IMG/VR virus record: IMGVR_UViG_3300014205_000172
Location: 96,001-160,000 of that record
Direction: 5' to 3' (one strand)
DNA: 64,000 bases
DNA from: a virus
Lineage: Duplodnaviria > Caudoviricetes
The notes below the pieces were generated by a model, which was not told the origin of the DNA, searched no databases, and saw only the letters and a list, made by a program, of their open reading frames with translations. Numbering within the stretch: position 1 is the stretch's first letter; each line of letters begins with the position of its first letter. A program made the position numbers and the translations under genes. Positions 4,759 through 12,961 of this stretch are shown piece by piece.

Positions 4759-5388
4759 ATGACCGATAAGCCAGACGAACTCGACTACAGCCACTTGAGC
4801 GGTGCTTTAAAAGCCGGCCTGACCGACTGGGATGATGCGGCTAACATGATTCTGAGCATGTCTCAGGCAATGATCCGCCGAGTGCCTGAAGAGTACTTCA
4901 CAGCGAAGGTGTTGCCTATTATCAGGGCATGGGTGCAGGGCATACCTGTAGAAGTGGGTCAGTGGATGAACATCGCCGACGGCATGGAGAATGAAATCAT
5001 CGTCGTAGATTCAAAGAACGTTGAGCTGTTCATTTGCCCTCCTCCATTTATACCCATGATCCCTAAGTCAGAGTTCGGTGAAAAGAACCGCGAATCAGCT
5101 TTCGCGGTAGTTCACGCTCAAGGCATGATGTACGATGCTGGCGAGATCCGTCAGGGTAACGCTATTGATGAAGCATTGTTTGAACTTGTGGTTGAAAAGC
5201 CAGACATTGCGATAAAAACAGCAGCGATCGATAAAATGATCTACATCTACCAGCGTTATGACTTACCAATGGTAGAACTGCTAGGAAGCCACACCGATGA
5301 AATCATGAAAGCGCGAGGCGCCCCGGTTAAGGCAGCCACTGAAAGTAAGGCGATTCCTGATGACGAAGAAGACACCCTCATCTACTGA
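4759..5388 (+). CDS. Hypothetical protein (core-block position)
   Basis: 209 aa, GAGGA RBS, overlaps the next gene. Confidence 0.8.
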   Translation: MTDKPDELDYSHLSGALKAGLTDWDDAANMILSMSQAMIRRVPEEYFTAKVLPIIRAWVQGIPVEVGQWMNIADGMENEIIVVDSKNVELFICPPPFIPMIPKSEFGEKNRESAFAVVHAQGMMYDAGEIRQGNAIDEALFELVVEKPDIAIKTAAIDKMIYIYQRYDLPMVELLGSHTDEIMKARGAPVKAATESKAIPDDEEDTLIY

Positions 5389-6481
5389 TGCGGTAAACAT
5401 TGCTTGGATCAGCGATATCCACTTAGGTCACCGCCGAGTGCCGACCAAGAAGATTATTGCATACTTGGAGAGTCTATTTAACGATAAGACTTTCCCCAAT
5501 TACAAAGCTATCGTGATCTCTGGCGATCTGTTTGATAAGCGCCTGGCTCACGATAGTGAAGAAGCTATGCTGGTATCCTTCTGGATGACGGATATGTGCG
5601 TGCTTGCTAAACGGCACAATGTTTCTATTGTTGTGCTGCTAGGTACCCTGAGTCACGACCAGGGTCAGCCAAAATGGTTTGTCTCGATCAATGGTAAGAT
5701 CTCCAAGATTGCAGCAGATGTTCGGTACTACGATAAGATCACGGTAGACAAGCTGTATCCAGGTGGTCCCGATACATTGTTCATCCCGGATGAGATGAAT
5801 CATGTCGCTGACACTACGTACAAGGAAGCCGTAGAGGTCATTAAGCTCGCGGGACTAGATAAGGTAAAGGTTGCAGTGATGCACGGTATGTTCCACTTCC
5901 AGGAGCCTATCCGCACTGTGGTGAGTCATGATGAAGCCAAGTATCACGAAATTGTTGAACACCTGGTCATCATCGGCCATCACCACACTCACGCCAAGTC
6001 TGGTATCATCCGAGTACCGGGGTCGATAGAGCGACTGCGGCATGGTGAAGAGGAAGACAAGGGTCATCTTGAAACACTTTACTCTCCGACTGAAGGTGTT
6101 CTGGAAGAACATTTCATCGTCAATAAGAATGCCGAGATATTCTCGACGGTTGATATGCAGGGTTTGCCTTTAAACGAAGTCATAGCCCACCTGGAGACTC
6201 TTAATCATCTCCCCGATGGCAGTAGACTAAGACTGTTAGTAAGTCGCAATGACGAAGCTTACAGCGGCATGCCGGGGATCAAGAATAAATTCCCACACTT
6301 TAGCATCGAGCCTAAAGTGGCGGAGTTGGTTAAGAGTAATAAAGATACGACGGAGTTGATCTCAAGACCCGTTATGACATCTATCCGACCTGACACTTTA
6401 AAAGGCTTGATCATGCCTAGAATTAAAGATGTGTCAGCTGAAACATTAAAGGCCATCGAGGTCAAGTTAGATAATCTCTAA
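5360..6481 (+). CDS. sbcD: SbcD/Mre11-like metallophosphoesterase nuclease
   Basis: Motifs SDIHLG, GDLFD, GTLSHD (GNHD variant), MHG, GHHH, PGS. Confidence 0.88.
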   Translation: MTKKTPSSTDAVNIAWISDIHLGHRRVPTKKIIAYLESLFNDKTFPNYKAIVISGDLFDKRLAHDSEEAMLVSFWMTDMCVLAKRHNVSIVVLLGTLSHDQGQPKWFVSINGKISKIAADVRYYDKITVDKLYPGGPDTLFIPDEMNHVADTTYKEAVEVIKLAGLDKVKVAVMHGMFHFQEPIRTVVSHDEAKYHEIVEHLVIIGHHHTHAKSGIIRVPGSIERLRHGEEEDKGHLETLYSPTEGVLEEHFIVNKNAEIFSTVDMQGLPLNEVIAHLETLNHLPDGSRLRLLVSRNDEAYSGMPGIKNKFPHFSIEPKVAELVKSNKDTTELISRPVMTSIRPDTLKGLIMPRIKDVSAETLKAIEVKLDNL

Positions 6482-6496
6482 CTGTAGGAGTGCATC

Positions 6497-7357
6497 ATGT
6501 CAGCGGCACAAGACAAATCACGAGAAGTGATCTCCAATCGAGCAGTTGGACAATTCCCAATTTCCATTGCGACAAGTCTGGCATTTGAATCAGCCATCGG
6601 CATCCTTCCGGAAGCACCTGCTCCAGAACCCGAGATTAAAAAACGGGATCTGATCATGGTCAACGTCCGTACCTTGATCCGTAATCTGCTGGGGTCTTTC
6701 GAGAAGGAGGATAAAGTCCATCTGGAGAACTATACGCTCGCTGAAGCCTTGGTTGGCGAGATGCGTGTGATGGAGACCTTGGCCGTTGAACATTCCAATG
6801 GGCGCTGTCGTGTTGAGTTCTACACCTGCACCTACGATGACCTGCAGACCAAATTTACAAGGGCTCTGATTAAAGTCCCGACGACACCGCTTCAAGTTGC
6901 TTACATGGGGATTGAAAAGGATATTCTCAAATACATCAAGGATGATTTCAAGTCAGCACCACCAGTCGAAGAATATACCCGTAACTTTAAAGATCATTCG
7001 GGCGATGCATTGATTGTCACGCACTTCCCGATCGACCTGCTTCAACGCTACAGGTTTAATTCCCTGTCATTGCTCGAATCCTACACCGGCGCTATTAAAC
7101 CCCCGTTGCTGTGGAACACAAAGCTTAAAGATGGCAAGGAGTTTGAAAACATTCCGTTTGATCGGATGACGCTACAGATGTTCGGCGATGGTGTTTTGTT
7201 TGCACCTATGCCTATCAAGATTCGTCAACGTGTGTATTCGATCGCTATCAAGCAACAGTGGACTCCGGCTTCTACAAAGGACTGGATTATCCGTGGTATC
7301 GAAGCGCACCGAGATCCTGCACTTGAGGTACTTGTTAAAGACTTGTACCGTAAGTAG
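6497..7357 (+). CDS. Hypothetical protein (core-block position)
   Basis: 286 aa, AGGAG RBS, lies between sbcD and the ChmC-position gene. Confidence 0.8.
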   Translation: MSAAQDKSREVISNRAVGQFPISIATSLAFESAIGILPEAPAPEPEIKKRDLIMVNVRTLIRNLLGSFEKEDKVHLENYTLAEALVGEMRVMETLAVEHSNGRCRVEFYTCTYDDLQTKFTRALIKVPTTPLQVAYMGIEKDILKYIKDDFKSAPPVEEYTRNFKDHSGDALIVTHFPIDLLQRYRFNSLSLLESYTGAIKPPLLWNTKLKDGKEFENIPFDRMTLQMFGDGVLFAPMPIKIRQRVYSIAIKQQWTPASTKDWIIRGIEAHRDPALEVLVKDLYRK

Positions 7358-7408: not shown

Positions 7409-8185
7409 ATGTCCGACCAACGCCAAGCCTGGGTCCCGACCGTAATGGACGAGCGCACCCTGAAACTGTACGGCACCCACCCGCTGGCAGAAGGTGCTTT
7501 CAAACCCGAATTCGCTATCAAGTGGATTCAGAAGACCAACGCCTTCTCGATCAAGGTAAGCACCGGCACCAAGACTGAGAAAGGGTTCCCCATCTCGATC
7601 GAAACCGCCATCAATGCCCTGTCTGTAATGGAGTTGATGGAGCTGATCGATACCGTTTCCAAAGCGCCGGGCGCAGTGTCTTTCGAAATGGACAACTGGG
7701 GTCAGCCCTTTATCTGGGATAACACTCAGAAGAAATCCATCCGTAGCCCTGACATCATCAACGTATCGCGCTTCCAAGTGGCCAAGCGTGAAGATGGTTC
7801 GGTGGTATTGAGCGTCGCGGCAAAAGGTAAGAAAGAGCTGGAATTCGAATTCAACGGCTCTGACTTCCACCGCATCCTTAAAGCCGGTGACGCGCACAAG
7901 GCGATGGCCTCACGTATCGCTGCAGTAACCTGGGCTGGTTTCTGGAAGAAGTTTGCTTACGACAAGTACAAGACCGCTTGGCAAGAAACCGAATACGACA
8001 AAAGCAAGCGTCTCGAACGTGCCGCCAAGGCATTGGAAAAGAGCGGCGGTCGCAATAACTACGGTGGCGGTGGCGGTGGTAGTCGACCTCCTCAACCTCA
8101 GCAACAACAGCGTCCTCAAGCGCCGGCTCCGGCACCTGCTCCACAAGGTGACTTCGACAGCTTCGACGAAGACGTTCCGTTTTAG
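7409..8185 (+). CDS. ChmC/Imp6-like (phiKZ gp67 position) single-stranded nucleic-acid-binding protein with an SSB-like acidic tail
   Basis: Directly upstream of the gp68-like gene; beta-rich N-domain, G/Q/P disordered linker, C-terminal DFDSFDEDVPF. Confidence 0.7.
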   Translation: MSDQRQAWVPTVMDERTLKLYGTHPLAEGAFKPEFAIKWIQKTNAFSIKVSTGTKTEKGFPISIETAINALSVMELMELIDTVSKAPGAVSFEMDNWGQPFIWDNTQKKSIRSPDIINVSRFQVAKREDGSVVLSVAAKGKKELEFEFNGSDFHRILKAGDAHKAMASRIAAVTWAGFWKKFAYDKYKTAWQETEYDKSKRLERAAKALEKSGGRNNYGGGGGGSRPPQPQQQQRPQAPAPAPAPQGDFDSFDEDVPF

Positions 8186-8219: not shown

Positions 8220-8270
8220 CATAAAGAATGCCCTCAATCGTGCTTCCGCGATTGAGGGTGTTTATGCCGC
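8220..8270. repeat. CATA...TATG hairpin family member
   Basis: CATAAAG..GCCCTCAATCG...CGATTGAGGGT.TTTATGCCGC. Confidence 0.65.
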
Positions 8271-8340: not shown

Positions 8341-8354
8341 CAGCAATACATTAC
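8341..8354 (+). promoter_or_regulatory. Putative early (virion-RNAP) promoter motif
   Basis: CAGCAATACATTAC, one of 6 copies of a CAGYMAYACATTAC-like motif at operon starts. Confidence 0.6.
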
Positions 8355-8385
8355 TTACCCGATGACCTACGCCTGGAGTTAATTG

Positions 8386-9966
8386 ATGGAGTTCAAAATT
8401 GCGACTTTTACGGTCAGGAGTTTCTCGATCGTACAAGCAAGCCACGGGGATGAAGTAGAGCTTGTCTTTAACACCGCCGGATACACCTCAACTAAACCTG
8501 GGGCAATCAAGCGCGATGATGGAAACGAGATGGGTACTAAGATTGAACTCTTTGAAGAGATCAATGCCCTGATTGCCACACTGCCACCCGCTTCTCAAGA
8601 TGCGCTGTACGGTGAGTATTCTCGCCTGGATAGCGTGCTGACTAGCTTCCACGTCATCGGCGCTTCTGGTCTGTCGGCCATGAAGCAATTACGAGAAGAT
8701 TTATCGGGGATCATTAAAAGCATTTACGAGCTTGTGTCATTTGCAGCTTTGCGTGAATACATCGTCAATAGTCCAAACATTCGACTGCCCATCGAACTGG
8801 CCGACGATTACATCACCACTGATAAAGTAACACCGCTGTATAAGGAACGAACGTATCTGCGTTCAGAGTACATCGACCTGGATGCGTTTGCGCTGGGCCT
8901 GCGGCTGATGATTCCTATCTGGGGCGGGTATTTGCCGATTGCTGAAACAGAGCACGGTAAGATGAAAGAGTACGATGCCTTCAAGTTGCTGTATGGTTCG
9001 GCAATGATGAAGACACCTGTGTTCGATCGACTTGAACGTTACCTGGCTGCCAACCTGGATGTCAGCAAATACGAACTGTCCGTGGTATCGAAGTTCCTTT
9101 CGGCCGATGGCGTTCCTGGGTTCTTGGCATCGTTTGCCTTGATCCGTAAAGTCAGTGTGGCACCTCTGTCGGCAGTGTCTGACAAAGACCACTTGATGAA
9201 GATCATTTACAACTACGTCATCGGTGATAAGAACCGAGTGCCGGCAGCGTTCGCCAGTAACATTCGCGATAAGAAACCAGAAGACTCATCGTCTGAAGGT
9301 AACGAAAGCGTTTGGGGTATCTTTAAGATGAAGACCAAAATCTCCACAGGGGATTTGGCAATCATCGAAGAGTACATGGAAAAGTATCAGCGCGCTGCGA
9401 AGAAGATTGCGCCAACACTCTCGGATGAGCGTATCGAGATGTGTGTACAAAATGCATTGACGCTCCATGACTTTGATCCGACCTATGGTCAGGAATGGTT
9501 AGTCATGCAAGTGTGTTCCACAGTTATTGTAGGTACTGCTATCGAGCTGATGGACCGGATACCTGGTCTGATTGCGGCCGGTGTTGTGCAAGCCGTACTG
9601 TGGGAGTGGAATCTGCCACAATTGGCAATTCTGACAACGGCTCGTATTGCTAAGCTTAAAGAAGGAGAAATGATTCAACCTATGCGGCGATTGCCCATCG
9701 CAGCAGATATCTTGGAACAATTTAATGTGATCTATCCGTACTTGGCTCCAGAGCCTCGCCGCGGTGATCCGATCCAGTCGACCAACGTCGGTGTCATCAA
9801 CGTTGAGAAGCATGTCCCACACTTCTATCGTCACGACTGGGTACCACAATGCCCTGTTGAACTTGCAAAGAGCTACTACCGGTCTGATAAGACCCGTCGT
9901 ATTGAAGTCACCGGCGACCTAAACAGTCAGCTGGGTGAAATGCTCATCAAGATCAATAACTTTTAA
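8386..9966 (+). CDS. nvRNAP promoter-specificity (sigma-like) subunit, phiKZ gp68-like
   Basis: About 526 aa, predicted helical; size and synteny three co-oriented genes upstream of betaC match gp68. Confidence 0.72.
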   Translation: MEFKIATFTVRSFSIVQASHGDEVELVFNTAGYTSTKPGAIKRDDGNEMGTKIELFEEINALIATLPPASQDALYGEYSRLDSVLTSFHVIGASGLSAMKQLREDLSGIIKSIYELVSFAALREYIVNSPNIRLPIELADDYITTDKVTPLYKERTYLRSEYIDLDAFALGLRLMIPIWGGYLPIAETEHGKMKEYDAFKLLYGSAMMKTPVFDRLERYLAANLDVSKYELSVVSKFLSADGVPGFLASFALIRKVSVAPLSAVSDKDHLMKIIYNYVIGDKNRVPAAFASNIRDKKPEDSSSEGNESVWGIFKMKTKISTGDLAIIEEYMEKYQRAAKKIAPTLSDERIEMCVQNALTLHDFDPTYGQEWLVMQVCSTVIVGTAIELMDRIPGLIAAGVVQAVLWEWNLPQLAILTTARIAKLKEGEMIQPMRRLPIAADILEQFNVIYPYLAPEPRRGDPIQSTNVGVINVEKHVPHFYRHDWVPQCPVELAKSYYRSDKTRRIEVTGDLNSQLGEMLIKINNF

Positions 9967-9991: not shown

Positions 9992-11647
9992 ATGCGCGTT
10001 CTTAAGCTAAACTTTGTGGAGGCTCCGCCGTCCTCTACCCAGTTCATCCGCACCTTCGACTTCGACAAGAAGAACAGTCGAATCGATGATCTTGCGCGGC
10101 TGACTGAAGATGGGACGAACATCATGCCAGAACGTTTGGCAAAGGTAGCATCGTCTCTGCTTTCGCCGAATACCACCAACCGCGCCAAGATCGTTTCCCA
10201 GATCGACGGCGGCTGGGATCAGAAGCGCATCATGTTCTCCATGGTGGTTGAGACATCCAGCCGTCCAAACCACCAAGAGTACGAATACATCGTGGGCCAC
10301 ACAGACTACGATGGATTCTCTCTGATCGGTATGAAAGAAGTCAAGCTCGATCTACGGATGAAACTGTACTTCGACCAGATCACGCACATCAACCTGTCTG
10401 GCGGCATTCGTCGTAGTTCCGAAGTCTGGACGCCATCCATTAAGTCAAGCGACCTGATCCTGAACCGCGATACGCTTCGCGGCTTCGGTCATGACGATCT
10501 GGCATCGCGCGGCACTGACCGTGCGCTGTCCAAGCGACCAACAGATCTGTTGCGTCGAGAAGGGGCATCCCTGAGTTACAATCAGGATAACTTCGCCTTC
10601 GATGATAACGATAAGCGCCGGCAGCCTCAGTCCAACACCAATAACACAGTGGGTACCTTTACTCAGCAGCTGAAGTTGTCCAGCCGGGATAATAACAGTG
10701 CGACATCCTTCCTGCACCGAACTCTCGATGGCTACGTCTCCGCATCGACCGGCGCTGGACTCGAGCCATCTTCATCGCCTTACGGCCTGGGTGATGAACG
10801 TTCGAGCAAGCTGGGTAACTTGAAACTGGCTTATGGCCGTGTTGACGAAAACGATCCGGCTGCTGACCGTTACCTGGAAGAGCTCAAGGAGTCTACGCGT
10901 ATCCTGAACTCTGGCTACATCACGTATGGCGAACTGATGGAGATGAATCCAGAGTTCGTTAAAAATGAGCAAGAAACTTTTGCTCGGGCAGATGTGCGTC
11001 GTAGCTACCGCCACAGCGACACCAAGCAATGGCAAGGCGATGATCACGAAACGATTGCAGCGCTCACGCTCGCCAACTCCCTGCCGGGATTGATGATCAA
11101 GAACATGTACTCGAAGCTGGATAAGCTGACGATTAACTCGTACGGTCACTCCAAACTGTCCCGTATCACCGGCTGCGTCCCATCACCGTACATCGATGGT
11201 CTGGATATCGAAGCTACATGGCCTAACTTTGAACACCAAGTGTCCGAAGTCTTGATTCATGAAGTGTCTCGCGGTATCTTCAACTTCGAGGCAAAAATTG
11301 ACGCAAACGTCGATGGTTATGTCGACATCTGGATTCGCATCGATGGCGGTCCTGAATCGTTCCACAGCTTCCCGGCGTATTGCGCTGCGTTGATGTCGCC
11401 AACTCTGGACACTAACGTTGGTTCGTTGAACTCGATGAGTACCAACCTCACCGATATCTCCAACGATCTCGCCACTCGGCGCATGGGTCACTCCCGCATC
11501 TCAATCGAAGATCCATTGCGTAACAGTAGCGGTGGGCTTCAATTGGGCATTGGTGGGATCGGTCGCCGCGATGCTCCAAGCTCCCGTACCCTTGACACCG
11601 CACTCAGTTCAAGTTCGCTGGATCTTCCGGCCAAAAAGAACTGGTAA
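9992..11647 (+). CDS. Phage-nucleus protein importer PicA/Imp1-like (phiKZ gp69 position)
   Basis: 551 aa directly after the gp68-like gene; assigned by synteny and size only. Confidence 0.65.
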   Translation: MRVLKLNFVEAPPSSTQFIRTFDFDKKNSRIDDLARLTEDGTNIMPERLAKVASSLLSPNTTNRAKIVSQIDGGWDQKRIMFSMVVETSSRPNHQEYEYIVGHTDYDGFSLIGMKEVKLDLRMKLYFDQITHINLSGGIRRSSEVWTPSIKSSDLILNRDTLRGFGHDDLASRGTDRALSKRPTDLLRREGASLSYNQDNFAFDDNDKRRQPQSNTNNTVGTFTQQLKLSSRDNNSATSFLHRTLDGYVSASTGAGLEPSSSPYGLGDERSSKLGNLKLAYGRVDENDPAADRYLEELKESTRILNSGYITYGELMEMNPEFVKNEQETFARADVRRSYRHSDTKQWQGDDHETIAALTLANSLPGLMIKNMYSKLDKLTINSYGHSKLSRITGCVPSPYIDGLDIEATWPNFEHQVSEVLIHEVSRGIFNFEAKIDANVDGYVDIWIRIDGGPESFHSFPAYCAALMSPTLDTNVGSLNSMSTNLTDISNDLATRRMGHSRISIEDPLRNSSGGLQLGIGGIGRRDAPSSRTLDTALSSSSLDLPAKKNW

Positions 11648-11674: not shown

Positions 11675-12961
11675 ATGTCAACGAAACTCGACAAGCTGAT
11701 TGATTTCTATTCGAAGCTTCTGCTTGATGTCGGGGTGTTTGACAAAGACGGTCAGGGTCTGCTGTTTTACAATCAGGGTGATACTGCTCACCCTGTTTCC
11801 CTGAGCGGCACTCGTCTTTGCCTCCCAACCCGCGAACTGGTCCGCGACGGCGATTGGACTGCCCGTACGGCATTCCACCCTCTGTCCGAACAGATCAACC
11901 AGGGTCCGTCCCCTGTGCTCAACGCGTTCAAAGCTTACATCATCGAACGCATCAAACCCCTGTACAAACTGATCGCCGTAGAGCTCGCTGAGCTAACTGC
12001 CGACAGTTCGCGCCACAAAGCGCTGACTACCAAAGCTTCGAAGTTCATGAAGAGCCTGGTAGGTTTCGACGATACCACTACCAAGACTCTGGAAAAGATC
12101 CTCAAGCGCACCAGTTCCGACATTCCGGAAAAGCGCCTGGTCAGTATTTTCCTCCAGGGTAGTCAGGGCGGCGGTATTTTACGCAGCTGTAAAGTATCAT
12201 TTCCAGTAATGGATGATGCTGAAAACGAAGACACTACCATGTTCTTCGAAGTGGCAATGCCGCGTAAAACAAAGGACAAGGCACTGATCGTATCTCTGCT
12301 GAACTACGTCCTCGGCGAATCTGGCATGTTCGATGGCGACGTAAAGAAAGGCGATGCGCCTTATTTCGAAAGCCTGCTGATCAGCTTCCACAAGATCGCC
12401 GAGCATCTGAACCGCTTGATCGATCTACATGGTGCCGCTTGTCCTGTACTCAAGGACTTCCGGTTCCATCTGGAATGGGCGGACGAACTCGCTACGTTTG
12501 GTGAGTTCTGTGAGAAATACGGCGTGGCTGTTCCAGCCCTGCCTGGTAACGTTGGTATCGATCCAGAGCCAGATGATGAAGAAGAAGAACCGTCCAGCAA
12601 GTCGGTATTTGAAGCAGGTGCCGATAAAGTTGGGGCAATTGACCTCCCGTTCAGCCGCAAAGGTGAAGACCGTAGCAGCCTGGGTAGTAGTGTTAATCGC
12701 AGTGGTGATGCCTTTACTCGCACTCGCGAGCAAGATGATCGTGATAACGATCGCGGCCGACCTGCTGCTACCACCATGAGTGTTGATGAAATCCTGCGTA
12801 GCGGTCGTGACCGTGGTCGCGGTGACTTCGATCGTCGTGATGATCGTGACCGTGGCCGTGATCCATTTCAACGTCAGTCTCATGAACGTAGCGGTATTCA
12901 GCTGGGTGGCGGTAACGGCGGTAGTGATCGTGGTGGTCGTGGCGGCGGCCGCGGCTGGTAA
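11675..12961 (+). CDS. Conserved-position protein (phiKZ gp70-like) with acidic and RD/RG low-complexity C-tail
   Basis: 428 aa; tail RDRGRGDFDRRDDRDRGR...GGRGGGRGW. Confidence 0.75.
   Translation: MSTKLDKLIDFYSKLLLDVGVFDKDGQGLLFYNQGDTAHPVSLSGTRLCLPTRELVRDGDWTARTAFHPLSEQINQGPSPVLNAFKAYIIERIKPLYKLIAVELAELTADSSRHKALTTKASKFMKSLVGFDDTTTKTLEKILKRTSSDIPEKRLVSIFLQGSQGGGILRSCKVSFPVMDDAENEDTTMFFEVAMPRKTKDKALIVSLLNYVLGESGMFDGDVKKGDAPYFESLLISFHKIAEHLNRLIDLHGAACPVLKDFRFHLEWADELATFGEFCEKYGVAVPALPGNVGIDPEPDDEEEEPSSKSVFEAGADKVGAIDLPFSRKGEDRSSLGSSVNRSGDAFTRTREQDDRDNDRGRPAATTMSVDEILRSGRDRGRGDFDRRDDRDRGRDPFQRQSHERSGIQLGGGNGGSDRGGRGGGRGW

Follow-up and report, generated by a model that had tools for sequence, protein, structure and literature searches.

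The window analysed here comprises 64,000 nt of the IMG/VR virus record IMGVR_UViG_3300014205_000172 (positions 96,001 to 160,000 of a 237,171-bp record that is estimated to be 95% complete and has a GC content of 49.6%), and all positions below count from its first letter unless stated otherwise. On its plus strand lies an open reading frame (ORF) at 7409-8185 that encodes 258 amino acids followed by a stop codon and, according to the ORF list and translation, ends GGRNNYGGGGGGSRPPQPQQQQRPQAPAPAPAPQGDFDSFDEDVPF. The product of this ORF is the ChmC/Imp6 orthologue (phiKZ gp67, PhiPA3 gp61, Goslar gp176) of an uncultured chimallivirus, as judged by the ORF list, phrog_3284, a profile search, blastp and hhalign. 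Its plus-strand coding sequence divides into three parts: a folded, Whirly/PUR-like core (residues 14-212; 7448-8044), delimited by an AlphaFold2 (AF2) model and structure comparison; a disordered linker (residues 213-247, GGRNNYGGGGGGSRPPQPQQQQRPQAPAPAPAPQG; 8045-8149) that is G-rich and then Q/P/A-rich, delimited by low model confidence (pLDDT <50), variation among homologues and composition; and an acidic tip, DFDSFDEDVPF-COOH (residues 248-258; 8150-8182). Conservation, the family profile and the match to Pseudomonas-type SSBs (proteins that bind single-stranded DNA) mark the tip as a short linear motif of the SSB C-terminal type (SSB-Ct). An earlier note on this DNA had quoted a C-terminal string for this protein, which is exactly its last 45 residues (nt 8048-8182, with the stop codon at 8183-8185); the start of 8040 given there falls inside codon 211 of the ORF.

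Assignment to the ChmC family rests on several searches. Against the PHROGs database, the protein matches phrog_3284 over residues 3-258 (E 2e-16), and the same family takes in phiKZ gp67 (E 6e-80) and Goslar gp176 (E 1e-35); phrog_2544 matches in the tail region only (residues 188-258). A profile made from residues 1 to ~205 of the window's clade only, with the tail excluded, retrieved 397 relatives at E <=1e-3 among 1.84 billion representatives. One of these, 'P0044' (E 5e-17), is 99% identical to Goslar gp176 by blastp, and other retrieved relatives are ~37% identical to the ChmC proteins of phiKZ, PhiPA3 and 201phi2-1. Comparison of the N-domain alignment with phiKZ gp67 by hhalign gave a probability of 84% (E 8e-6). 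Megablast with the 6 kb around chmC found no match in the phage database, and tblastn with the window ChmC found Goslar gp176 as its sole match there (E 7e-4, 27.5% identity over the core). The window phage belongs to a deep, uncultured lineage. Pfam gave no match for the window ChmC or for its six neighbours. The gene adds a new and divergent member to a family already known. It shares with the ChmC proteins that have been studied (PhiPA3 gp61, phiKZ gp67, Goslar gp176 and 201phi2-1 gp123; Enustun et al., NAR 2024, PMC11077065; 10.1101/2024.03.27.586873) a common PHROG, genomic slot and Whirly-like predicted fold, a length of ~250 amino acids and a disordered C-terminal region ending in an acidic patch. 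It differs from them in having a Q/P/A-rich rather than an N/G-rich linker and a clean SSB-Ct tip (..FDEDVPF), where theirs are degenerate (FDEDMPSF, FDDEIPNF, ELASFDW and AFDGLAF).

Long forms of ChmC, each with two phrog_3284 stretches, were also seen in Erwinia phage pEa_SNUABM_54 (L146:3-1088), in 'P0148' (466 amino acids) and in 'P0037' (404 amino acids). In each of them, one chain carries Whirly units duplicated in tandem; the end is ..PPAFDTDIPF in P0148 and in the pEa_SNUABM_54 protein, and ..IVENDIF in P0037. Counting from the gp68 homologue of pEa_SNUABM_54, the long chmC is found four small genes upstream.

The genomic context agrees with this identity. Upstream of chmC on the plus strand are an SbcD-like nuclease gene in the phiKZ gp65 position (5360-6481; phrog_100, E 2e-39), which has the same slot in phiKZ, PhiPA3 and 201phi2-1, and a gene for a conserved protein in the gp66 position (6497-7357; phrog_3229, E 6e-79), assigned also by synteny. 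Downstream, again on the plus strand, are the orthologue of phiKZ gp68 and Goslar gp175 (8383-9966), identified by tblastn, and the orthologue of the import factor PicA/Imp1, phiKZ gp69 (9992-11647; phrog_3141; 24% identity over 511 amino acids by BLASTP, E 4e-20). In the tblastn search, the gp68-like gene matched 157 chimallivirus records, including PHIKZ068 and Goslar gp175; a role for gp68 as an nvRNAP (non-virion RNA polymerase) subunit comes from the Imp1/Imp6 preprint (10.1101/2024.03.27.586873). The order SbcD-like gene, gp66-like gene, chmC, gp68, picA is the same in the window and in phiKZ, PhiPA3, 201phi2-1, DT01 and Goslar, and the synteny of chmC with picA is kept in every locus fetched. 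Synteny and the BLASTP match to gp69 thus bear out the claim, made from the sequence alone, that the gene occupies the phiKZ gp67 slot two genes before picA. In Psa21 (L132:2423-3004) and AH06 (L145:1934-2350), an annotated endonuclease gene stands between chmC and the gp68 homologue. The presence of endonuclease genes beside chmC in some cultured chimalliviruses suggests mobile, homing-type insertions in this conserved block.

The AF2 model (m42dd7a78cf70), built on 17 sequences, has a mean pLDDT of 71. Within the core, pLDDT is mostly 80-94 in the beta-sheet repeats and 57-79 in parts of residues 151-210, while residues 213-258 fall below 50 and are predicted to be disordered. The core is laid out as beta-beta-beta-beta-alpha repeats followed by two long helices, and carries a net charge of +6. 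An exhaustive VIA-align comparison placed four structures at the top, namely StWhy2 (3n1h, Z 8.1), MRP1/2 (2gia, Z 8.1), PBF-2 (1l3a, Z 7.5) and Pur-alpha (3k44, Z 6.7), with the next at 5.2; the top Foldseek matches are the same Whirly/PUR/MRP folds, with probabilities of 0.77-0.96 at E values of only ~1e-2. The two methods agree on the Whirly-like fold, the confirmation of which had been proposed as a check, and this predicted fold rules out an ordinary OB-fold SSB as the N-terminal domain, the case that the earlier note had set against its own interpretation. Whirly/PUR/MRP proteins are tetrameric single-strand binders. They are the best structural matches over 121-132 residues, at sequence identities of 6-8% and with Z scores of ~8, a range that VIA-align warns may reflect a common arrangement. 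The Pfam Whirly family (PF08536) had no match at E up to 0.1 in the window ChmC or elsewhere in the genome. The likeness to Whirly proteins is one of predicted fold only. We know of no DDDIPF-type end in StWhy2, PBF-2, MRP1/2 or Pur-alpha.

The acidic tip is the most constant feature of the C-terminal region. Sixteen homologues found by a word-based search ('P0002'-'P0017', 34-94% identical) end in [DE][DE][DE][IVL]PF or something close to it. Across the 17 sequences P257, F258 and F252 never vary, while the linker differs in both length and sequence; the tip is kept in 17 of 17 clade members. The pattern extends to a family set of 176 sequences, made up of 165 proteins retrieved without use of the tail and 11 ChmC proteins from cultured phages. 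The consensus of their tails, F-D-D-D-[ILV]-P-F, is the bacterial SSB-Ct motif. Counting back from the C-terminus, position -1 is F in 103 sequences, M in 23, L in 14, W in 12 and Y in 6, position -2 is P in 125, and position -3 is I, L, V or F in 147; acidic residues (D or E) occupy position -4 in 142 and position -5 in 150, with D at position -6 in 95 and F at position -7 in 55. The motif always sits at the extreme C-terminus, and the last eight positions contain a mean of ~3 acidic and 0.05 basic residues. A loose form of the motif ([DE].?[DE][ILVMFYW]P[FWYMLI] at the C-terminus) occurs in one of the 587 open frames of at least 100 amino acids in the 237-kb genome, and that frame is chmC; the window tip is far beyond chance. 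In a tree of N-domains, the state at the end of the chain (Pro-Phe or not) changes at least 37 times among 170 leaves, and canonical tips are spread over many N-domain lineages, with 20 of 27 members of the window's clade having one. The tip is real and selected, but it is a trait of the ChmC family and is not peculiar to the window phage. Its position-specific, strictly C-terminal pattern has, as far as can be read from the sequences, the look of a docking peptide rather than that of a mere acidic patch.

Bacterial SSBs (PF00436) and the window ChmC share their architecture: a core that binds single strands is followed by a disordered G/Q/P linker, and the chain closes with an acidic tip ending [IV]PF-COOH. 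They differ in that the bacterial SSB core is an OB fold whereas that of the window ChmC is predicted to be of the Whirly/PUR type, and in that a studied ChmC homologue prefers RNA. The description of the window tail as a near-copy of the Pseudomonas SSB tail holds: nine of the last 11 residues are identical to a Pseudomonadales SSB, and DFDSFDEDVPF departs from it at two positions only, both by conservative changes (D to E and I to V). We scanned one genome per species for DNA encoding a DSFDDDIPF-type end followed by a stop codon, which gave at least 120 loci; among the matches listed, these are overwhelmingly from Pseudomonas, Stutzerimonas, Cellvibrionaceae and other Pseudomonadales. The corresponding ORFs have 160-200 amino acids and start MARGVNKVIL, and all three that were tested are PF00436 members (E 1e-35 to 1e-41). 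The form that the earlier note had given for the P. aeruginosa-group tail is therefore seen in PF00436-confirmed ORFs from Pseudomonas and its relatives.

The likeness reaches beyond the tip. The last 31 residues of the window ChmC (PQPQQQQRPQAPAPAPAPQGDFDSFDEDVPF) align without a gap to one Pseudomonadales-type SSB tail, and the alignment takes in QQQQRP and the A/P/Q repeats. The composition of the window linker (Q.20, P.23, A.11) is near that of SSBs ending DSFDDDIPF (Q.26, P.20, A.17), while the ChmC linkers of cultured phages are G/N-rich with at most 6% proline. With the tip removed, the linker reaches a best score of 79, compared to 58.4 +/- 6.1 in composition-preserving shuffles, and 1 of 300 shuffles equalled it; on this score, the likeness to SSB linkers exceeds what composition gives. 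A Q/P/A-rich linker together with a DFDSF tip is, judging by these sequences, what sets the window's clade apart. At the DNA level, identity to ssb 3' ends is up to 92% over the last 36 nt, which is explained by the codons that the shared peptide forces, and averages 54% over the last 90 nt (56-64% in the best rows). We therefore see nothing to indicate that an ssb 3' end was transferred recently. The tail may have originated by an old capture of an ssb 3' end or by convergence, and either fits these identities equally well. A search of the tail against sequences in the Protein Data Bank gave weak low-complexity matches only, with the M. smegmatis SSB tail matching end to end at E 0.42.

A further question is whether the tail tracks the host. 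The earlier note had suggested a survey of orthologue C-termini against host SSB tails; we read the tail of ChmC in 25 cultured chimalliviruses whose hosts are stated, and an exact Pseudomonas-type tip occurs in none of the seven Pseudomonas chimalliviruses among them. Clean or near-clean tips are found in Proteus phage 10 (KDFDDDIPF), Erwinia phage AH06 (FDDDLPF), PhiEaH1 and pEa_SNUABM_48 (FDSDIPF), RAY (DFADDLPF), Serratia phage PCH45 (YDEDIPF) and Burkholderia phage FLC9 (SEDLPF). The ends of the seven Pseudomonas phages are altered without exception: FDEDMPSF in phiKZ, FDDEIPNF in PhiPA3, FDDDVPL in DT01, DFDDFVM in Noxifer, ..GD[AV]MAF in RVTF4 and Psa21, and ELASFDW in 201phi2-1. Since these tips drift while those of proteobacterial SSBs are nearly invariant, the comparison of sequences argues that exact host mimicry is not what the ChmC family conserves. 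The conserved contact seems more likely to be with a co-evolving phage partner or with ChmC's own basic face; both the variation at position -1 and the degenerate tips of the Pseudomonas phages fit a co-evolving partner.

Published work on ChmC offers a framework for the function of the tail. PhiPA3 ChmC is a Whirly-fold homotetramer that binds single-stranded RNA with a Kd of 58 nM and single-stranded DNA with a Kd of 184 nM, forms condensates, binds phage mRNAs in cells and is required for infection; removal of residues 204-251 abolishes condensates and localisation to the nuclear shell and leaves RNA binding and tetramers intact (PMC11077065). In phiKZ, gp67 (Imp6) contacts Imp1/PicA directly, forming a stable complex of ~2:1 (10.1101/2024.03.27.586873), and a pull-down of the Goslar RNase H-clamp protein Rhc brings ChmC, the nvRNAP and the DNA polymerase with it. 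We found no paper linking the ChmC tail to SSB in the literature on the phage nucleus and Chimalliviridae, and the term 'SSB' occurs 0 times in the ChmC paper (PMC11077065). Literature on a C-terminal acidic autoregulatory motif in Whirly proteins likewise yielded nothing relevant. The linker and tip of E. coli SSB have likewise been linked to the docking of partners and to phase separation.

Two phage SSBs provide a precedent for an acidic tail of this kind. T4 gp32 and T7 gp2.5 have OB-fold cores and an acidic C-terminus that autoregulates DNA binding and recruits the phage replisome, and T7 gp2.5 ends in Phe. Autoinhibition by fold-back of the tail is a feature of SSB and phage SSB tails. 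ChmC resembles T4 gp32 and T7 gp2.5 in principle, through its acidic C-terminal tail, although the cores differ.

The analysis bears out the protein's orthology and fold class, its disorder, the motif's conservation and the likeness to the SSB tail; from them we infer each step of binding. We propose, with a probability of roughly 0.55, that the ChmC tip is an SSB-Ct-like peptide that serves both docking and autoregulation on a single-strand binder of Whirly fold, with partners that are chiefly phage-encoded. The protein would consist of a basic Whirly-fold core that binds single-stranded RNA or DNA, a G/Q/P-rich disordered linker of ~35 residues, and an acidic tip of 11 residues. When the core is free, the tip would fold back on the basic nucleic-acid-binding face, giving rise to autoinhibition and to the multivalent contacts that underlie condensates; the charge split between core (+6) and tip (-5) fits such a fold-back. 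Once single strands occupy the core, the tip would be released and could dock, through its terminal Pro-Phe-COO- and acidic run, into partner sites formed by a hydrophobic pocket and a basic ridge, thereby concentrating partners at the phage nucleus. These partners would most likely be phage-encoded and co-evolving, with PicA/Imp1, Rhc together with the DNA polymerase, and the nvRNAP as candidates; the last ~30 residues of the window's clade nearly copy a Pseudomonadales SSB tail, and host SSB-binding enzymes might possibly be engaged as well. Complex prediction for tail residues 209-258 with the PicA orthologue gave an ipSAE of 0.00 in both runs, which weighs neither way.

Several observations count against this proposal. 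The deletion of residues 204-251 from PhiPA3 ChmC took out linker and tip together, and the authors of that study explain the region as an N/G-rich condensate driver with a generic S/D/E-rich 'electronegative cluster' (PMC11077065). In its preference for RNA and its binding of phage mRNAs in cells (PMC11077065), ChmC departs from classic SSB behaviour. Lastly, the well-studied proteins of 201phi2-1 (..ELASFDW), Goslar (..AFDGLAF) and Vibrio phage Yong MS32 (..SSTGW) have no Pro-Phe end, yet are presumably functional.

The interpretation put forward in the earlier note was that ChmC, with PicA at the nuclear shell, uses an SSB-Ct mimic to seize RecQ, ExoI, PriA, RNase HI, TopB and other host enzymes, either for import or for titration from host SSB. 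Our results support that note on orthology, gene position, the Whirly-like fold and the SSB-type tail, and we consider host capture to be improbable. The gap-free alignment of tip and linker over 31 residues with Pseudomonadales-type SSB tails speaks for it, as does a linker score beyond composition that 1 of 300 shuffles equalled. DSFDDDIPF is moreover found in only one of 29 evenly drawn gammaproteobacterial SSBs, whose tails have a mean similarity to the window tail of 60 (maximum 94), compared to a mean of 94 (maximum 124) in the Pseudomonadales-rich set; that set was itself picked by its DSFDDDIPF pattern. The window phage has no close cultured relative; its gp68 finds its nearest homologue, at 29% identity, in Pseudomonas phage DT01. 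Enterobacterial-type tips are matched by some cultured phages, Proteus phage 10 among them, and the Imp system brings host TopA into the phiKZ nucleus (10.1101/2024.03.27.586873). However, with DDDIPF near-universal in Gammaproteobacteria (21 of the 29 evenly drawn SSBs, with DDDVPF in a further three), a match says little about a specific host, and the lack of an exact Pseudomonas-type tip in all seven cultured Pseudomonas chimalliviruses indicates that the family functions without need of exact mimicry.

Equally doubtful, in our view, is that the tail acts through charge alone, as a low-complexity condensate driver and a non-specific 'electronegative cluster' that keeps an RNA binder soluble and selective, its likeness to SSB-Ct being convergent composition. 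This is the published interpretation, under which loss of condensates on C-terminal deletion is expected (PMC11077065), and it accords with the preponderance of acidic over basic residues in the last eight positions (~3 versus 0.05) and with the several family members that are acidic-ended and lack Pro-Phe. It leaves unexplained the pattern by position, with a hydrophobic residue at -3 (147/176), Pro at -2 (125/176) and an aromatic residue, Met or Leu at -1, always at the C-terminus, and it does not account for the invariance of P257 and F258 across proteins of 34-94% identity amid a drifting linker. Least probable is that the tip is only a specific anchor, holding ChmC to PicA/Imp1 or to chimallin at the shell of the nucleus, with no SSB-like multi-partner role, a view that can draw on the stable ~2:1 complex of gp67 and Imp1 (10.1101/2024.03.27.586873), on the loss of shell localisation when the C-terminal region is removed (PMC11077065) and on the chmC-picA synteny in every fetched locus, but that sits poorly with a tip far better conserved than PicA itself (24% identity between the window phage and phiKZ).

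Other features of the genome bear on the locus or on the partners of a docking peptide. A 209-amino-acid ORF at 4759-5388 on the plus strand, just upstream of the SbcD-like gene and with a weak match to phrog_5171, ends ..AIPDDEEDTLIY and is the only other ORF of the 237-kb genome with an acidic run and an aromatic end; it may carry another acidic C-terminal peptide, the second in this block of genes. The gene in the gp70 position (11675-12961, plus strand; phrog_3520) adjoins picA, and the last ~110 residues of its product are R/D/G-rich and RGG-like, ending ..GGNGGSDRGGRGGGRGW; this suggests that the locus encodes a further tail that binds RNA or is prone to form condensates. Beyond the window, an RNase H domain (G000:C1:28843-29166; L147) lies in a 519-amino-acid open frame that is likely the orthologue of Rhc, and the C-terminal domain of an SF2 helicase (G000:C1:212026-212325; L148) lies in an 852-amino-acid frame. 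The RNase H-domain protein and the helicase are candidate partners for an SSB-type tail. Between chmC and the gp68-like gene, a hairpin with a 10-bp stem (8231-8258), found by a terminator-like scan 46 nt past the chmC stop codon, is a possible transcript end; the scan flagged only the minus strand, the plus-strand T-run is weak, and the number of such hairpins is not above that in shuffled sequence. A TACATTAC motif at 8347-8354, ahead of the gp68-like gene, has two copies in the window, a number not above chance.

A docking and autoregulatory role for the ChmC tip would also touch on the SSB of phiKZ-like phages. A global survey detected no SSB in these phages, called this surprising and raised the possibility of non-orthologous displacement (PMC4889955). 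We found no PF00436 SSB in the 95%-complete genome, and no match to gp32 (PF08804) or gp2.5-like (PF10991) proteins, two families for which the control genomes gave none either. As a tentative extension of our proposal, ChmC might be the missing SSB: a Whirly protein that displaced an OB-fold SSB non-orthologously, with the SSB linker and SSB-Ct kept or captured. It would coat nascent mRNA and the single-stranded DNA of replication forks in the phage nucleus, and with its tip it would organise the nvRNAP and PicA along with Rhc and the DNA polymerase; in the window's clade, the tail, whether acquired from the ssb of a Pseudomonadales host or similar to it by convergence, could in addition hijack host SSB-binding enzymes.

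The ChmC/Imp6 family, its Whirly fold and its disordered, acidic-ended C-terminal region were already known (PMC11077065). New here are the Pseudomonadales-type linker-plus-tip of the window's clade, the comparison with the hosts of cultured phages and the argument from variation at the terminal residue. ChmC/Imp6 is essential, very abundant, and tied to mRNA export and to the import factor PicA/Imp1. Once recognised as being of the SSB-Ct type, the 'acidic low-complexity tail' is no longer vague and becomes an exact target for F-to-A changes, an ssb113-like P-to-S change or deletion of the tip only. The ChmC family also provides a candidate for the SSB that was not found in phiKZ-like phages by comparative genomics (PMC4889955). 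Some clades might show a host-type SSB tail to host repair enzymes, and this would tie the biology of the phage nucleus to a well-understood bacterial peptide code.

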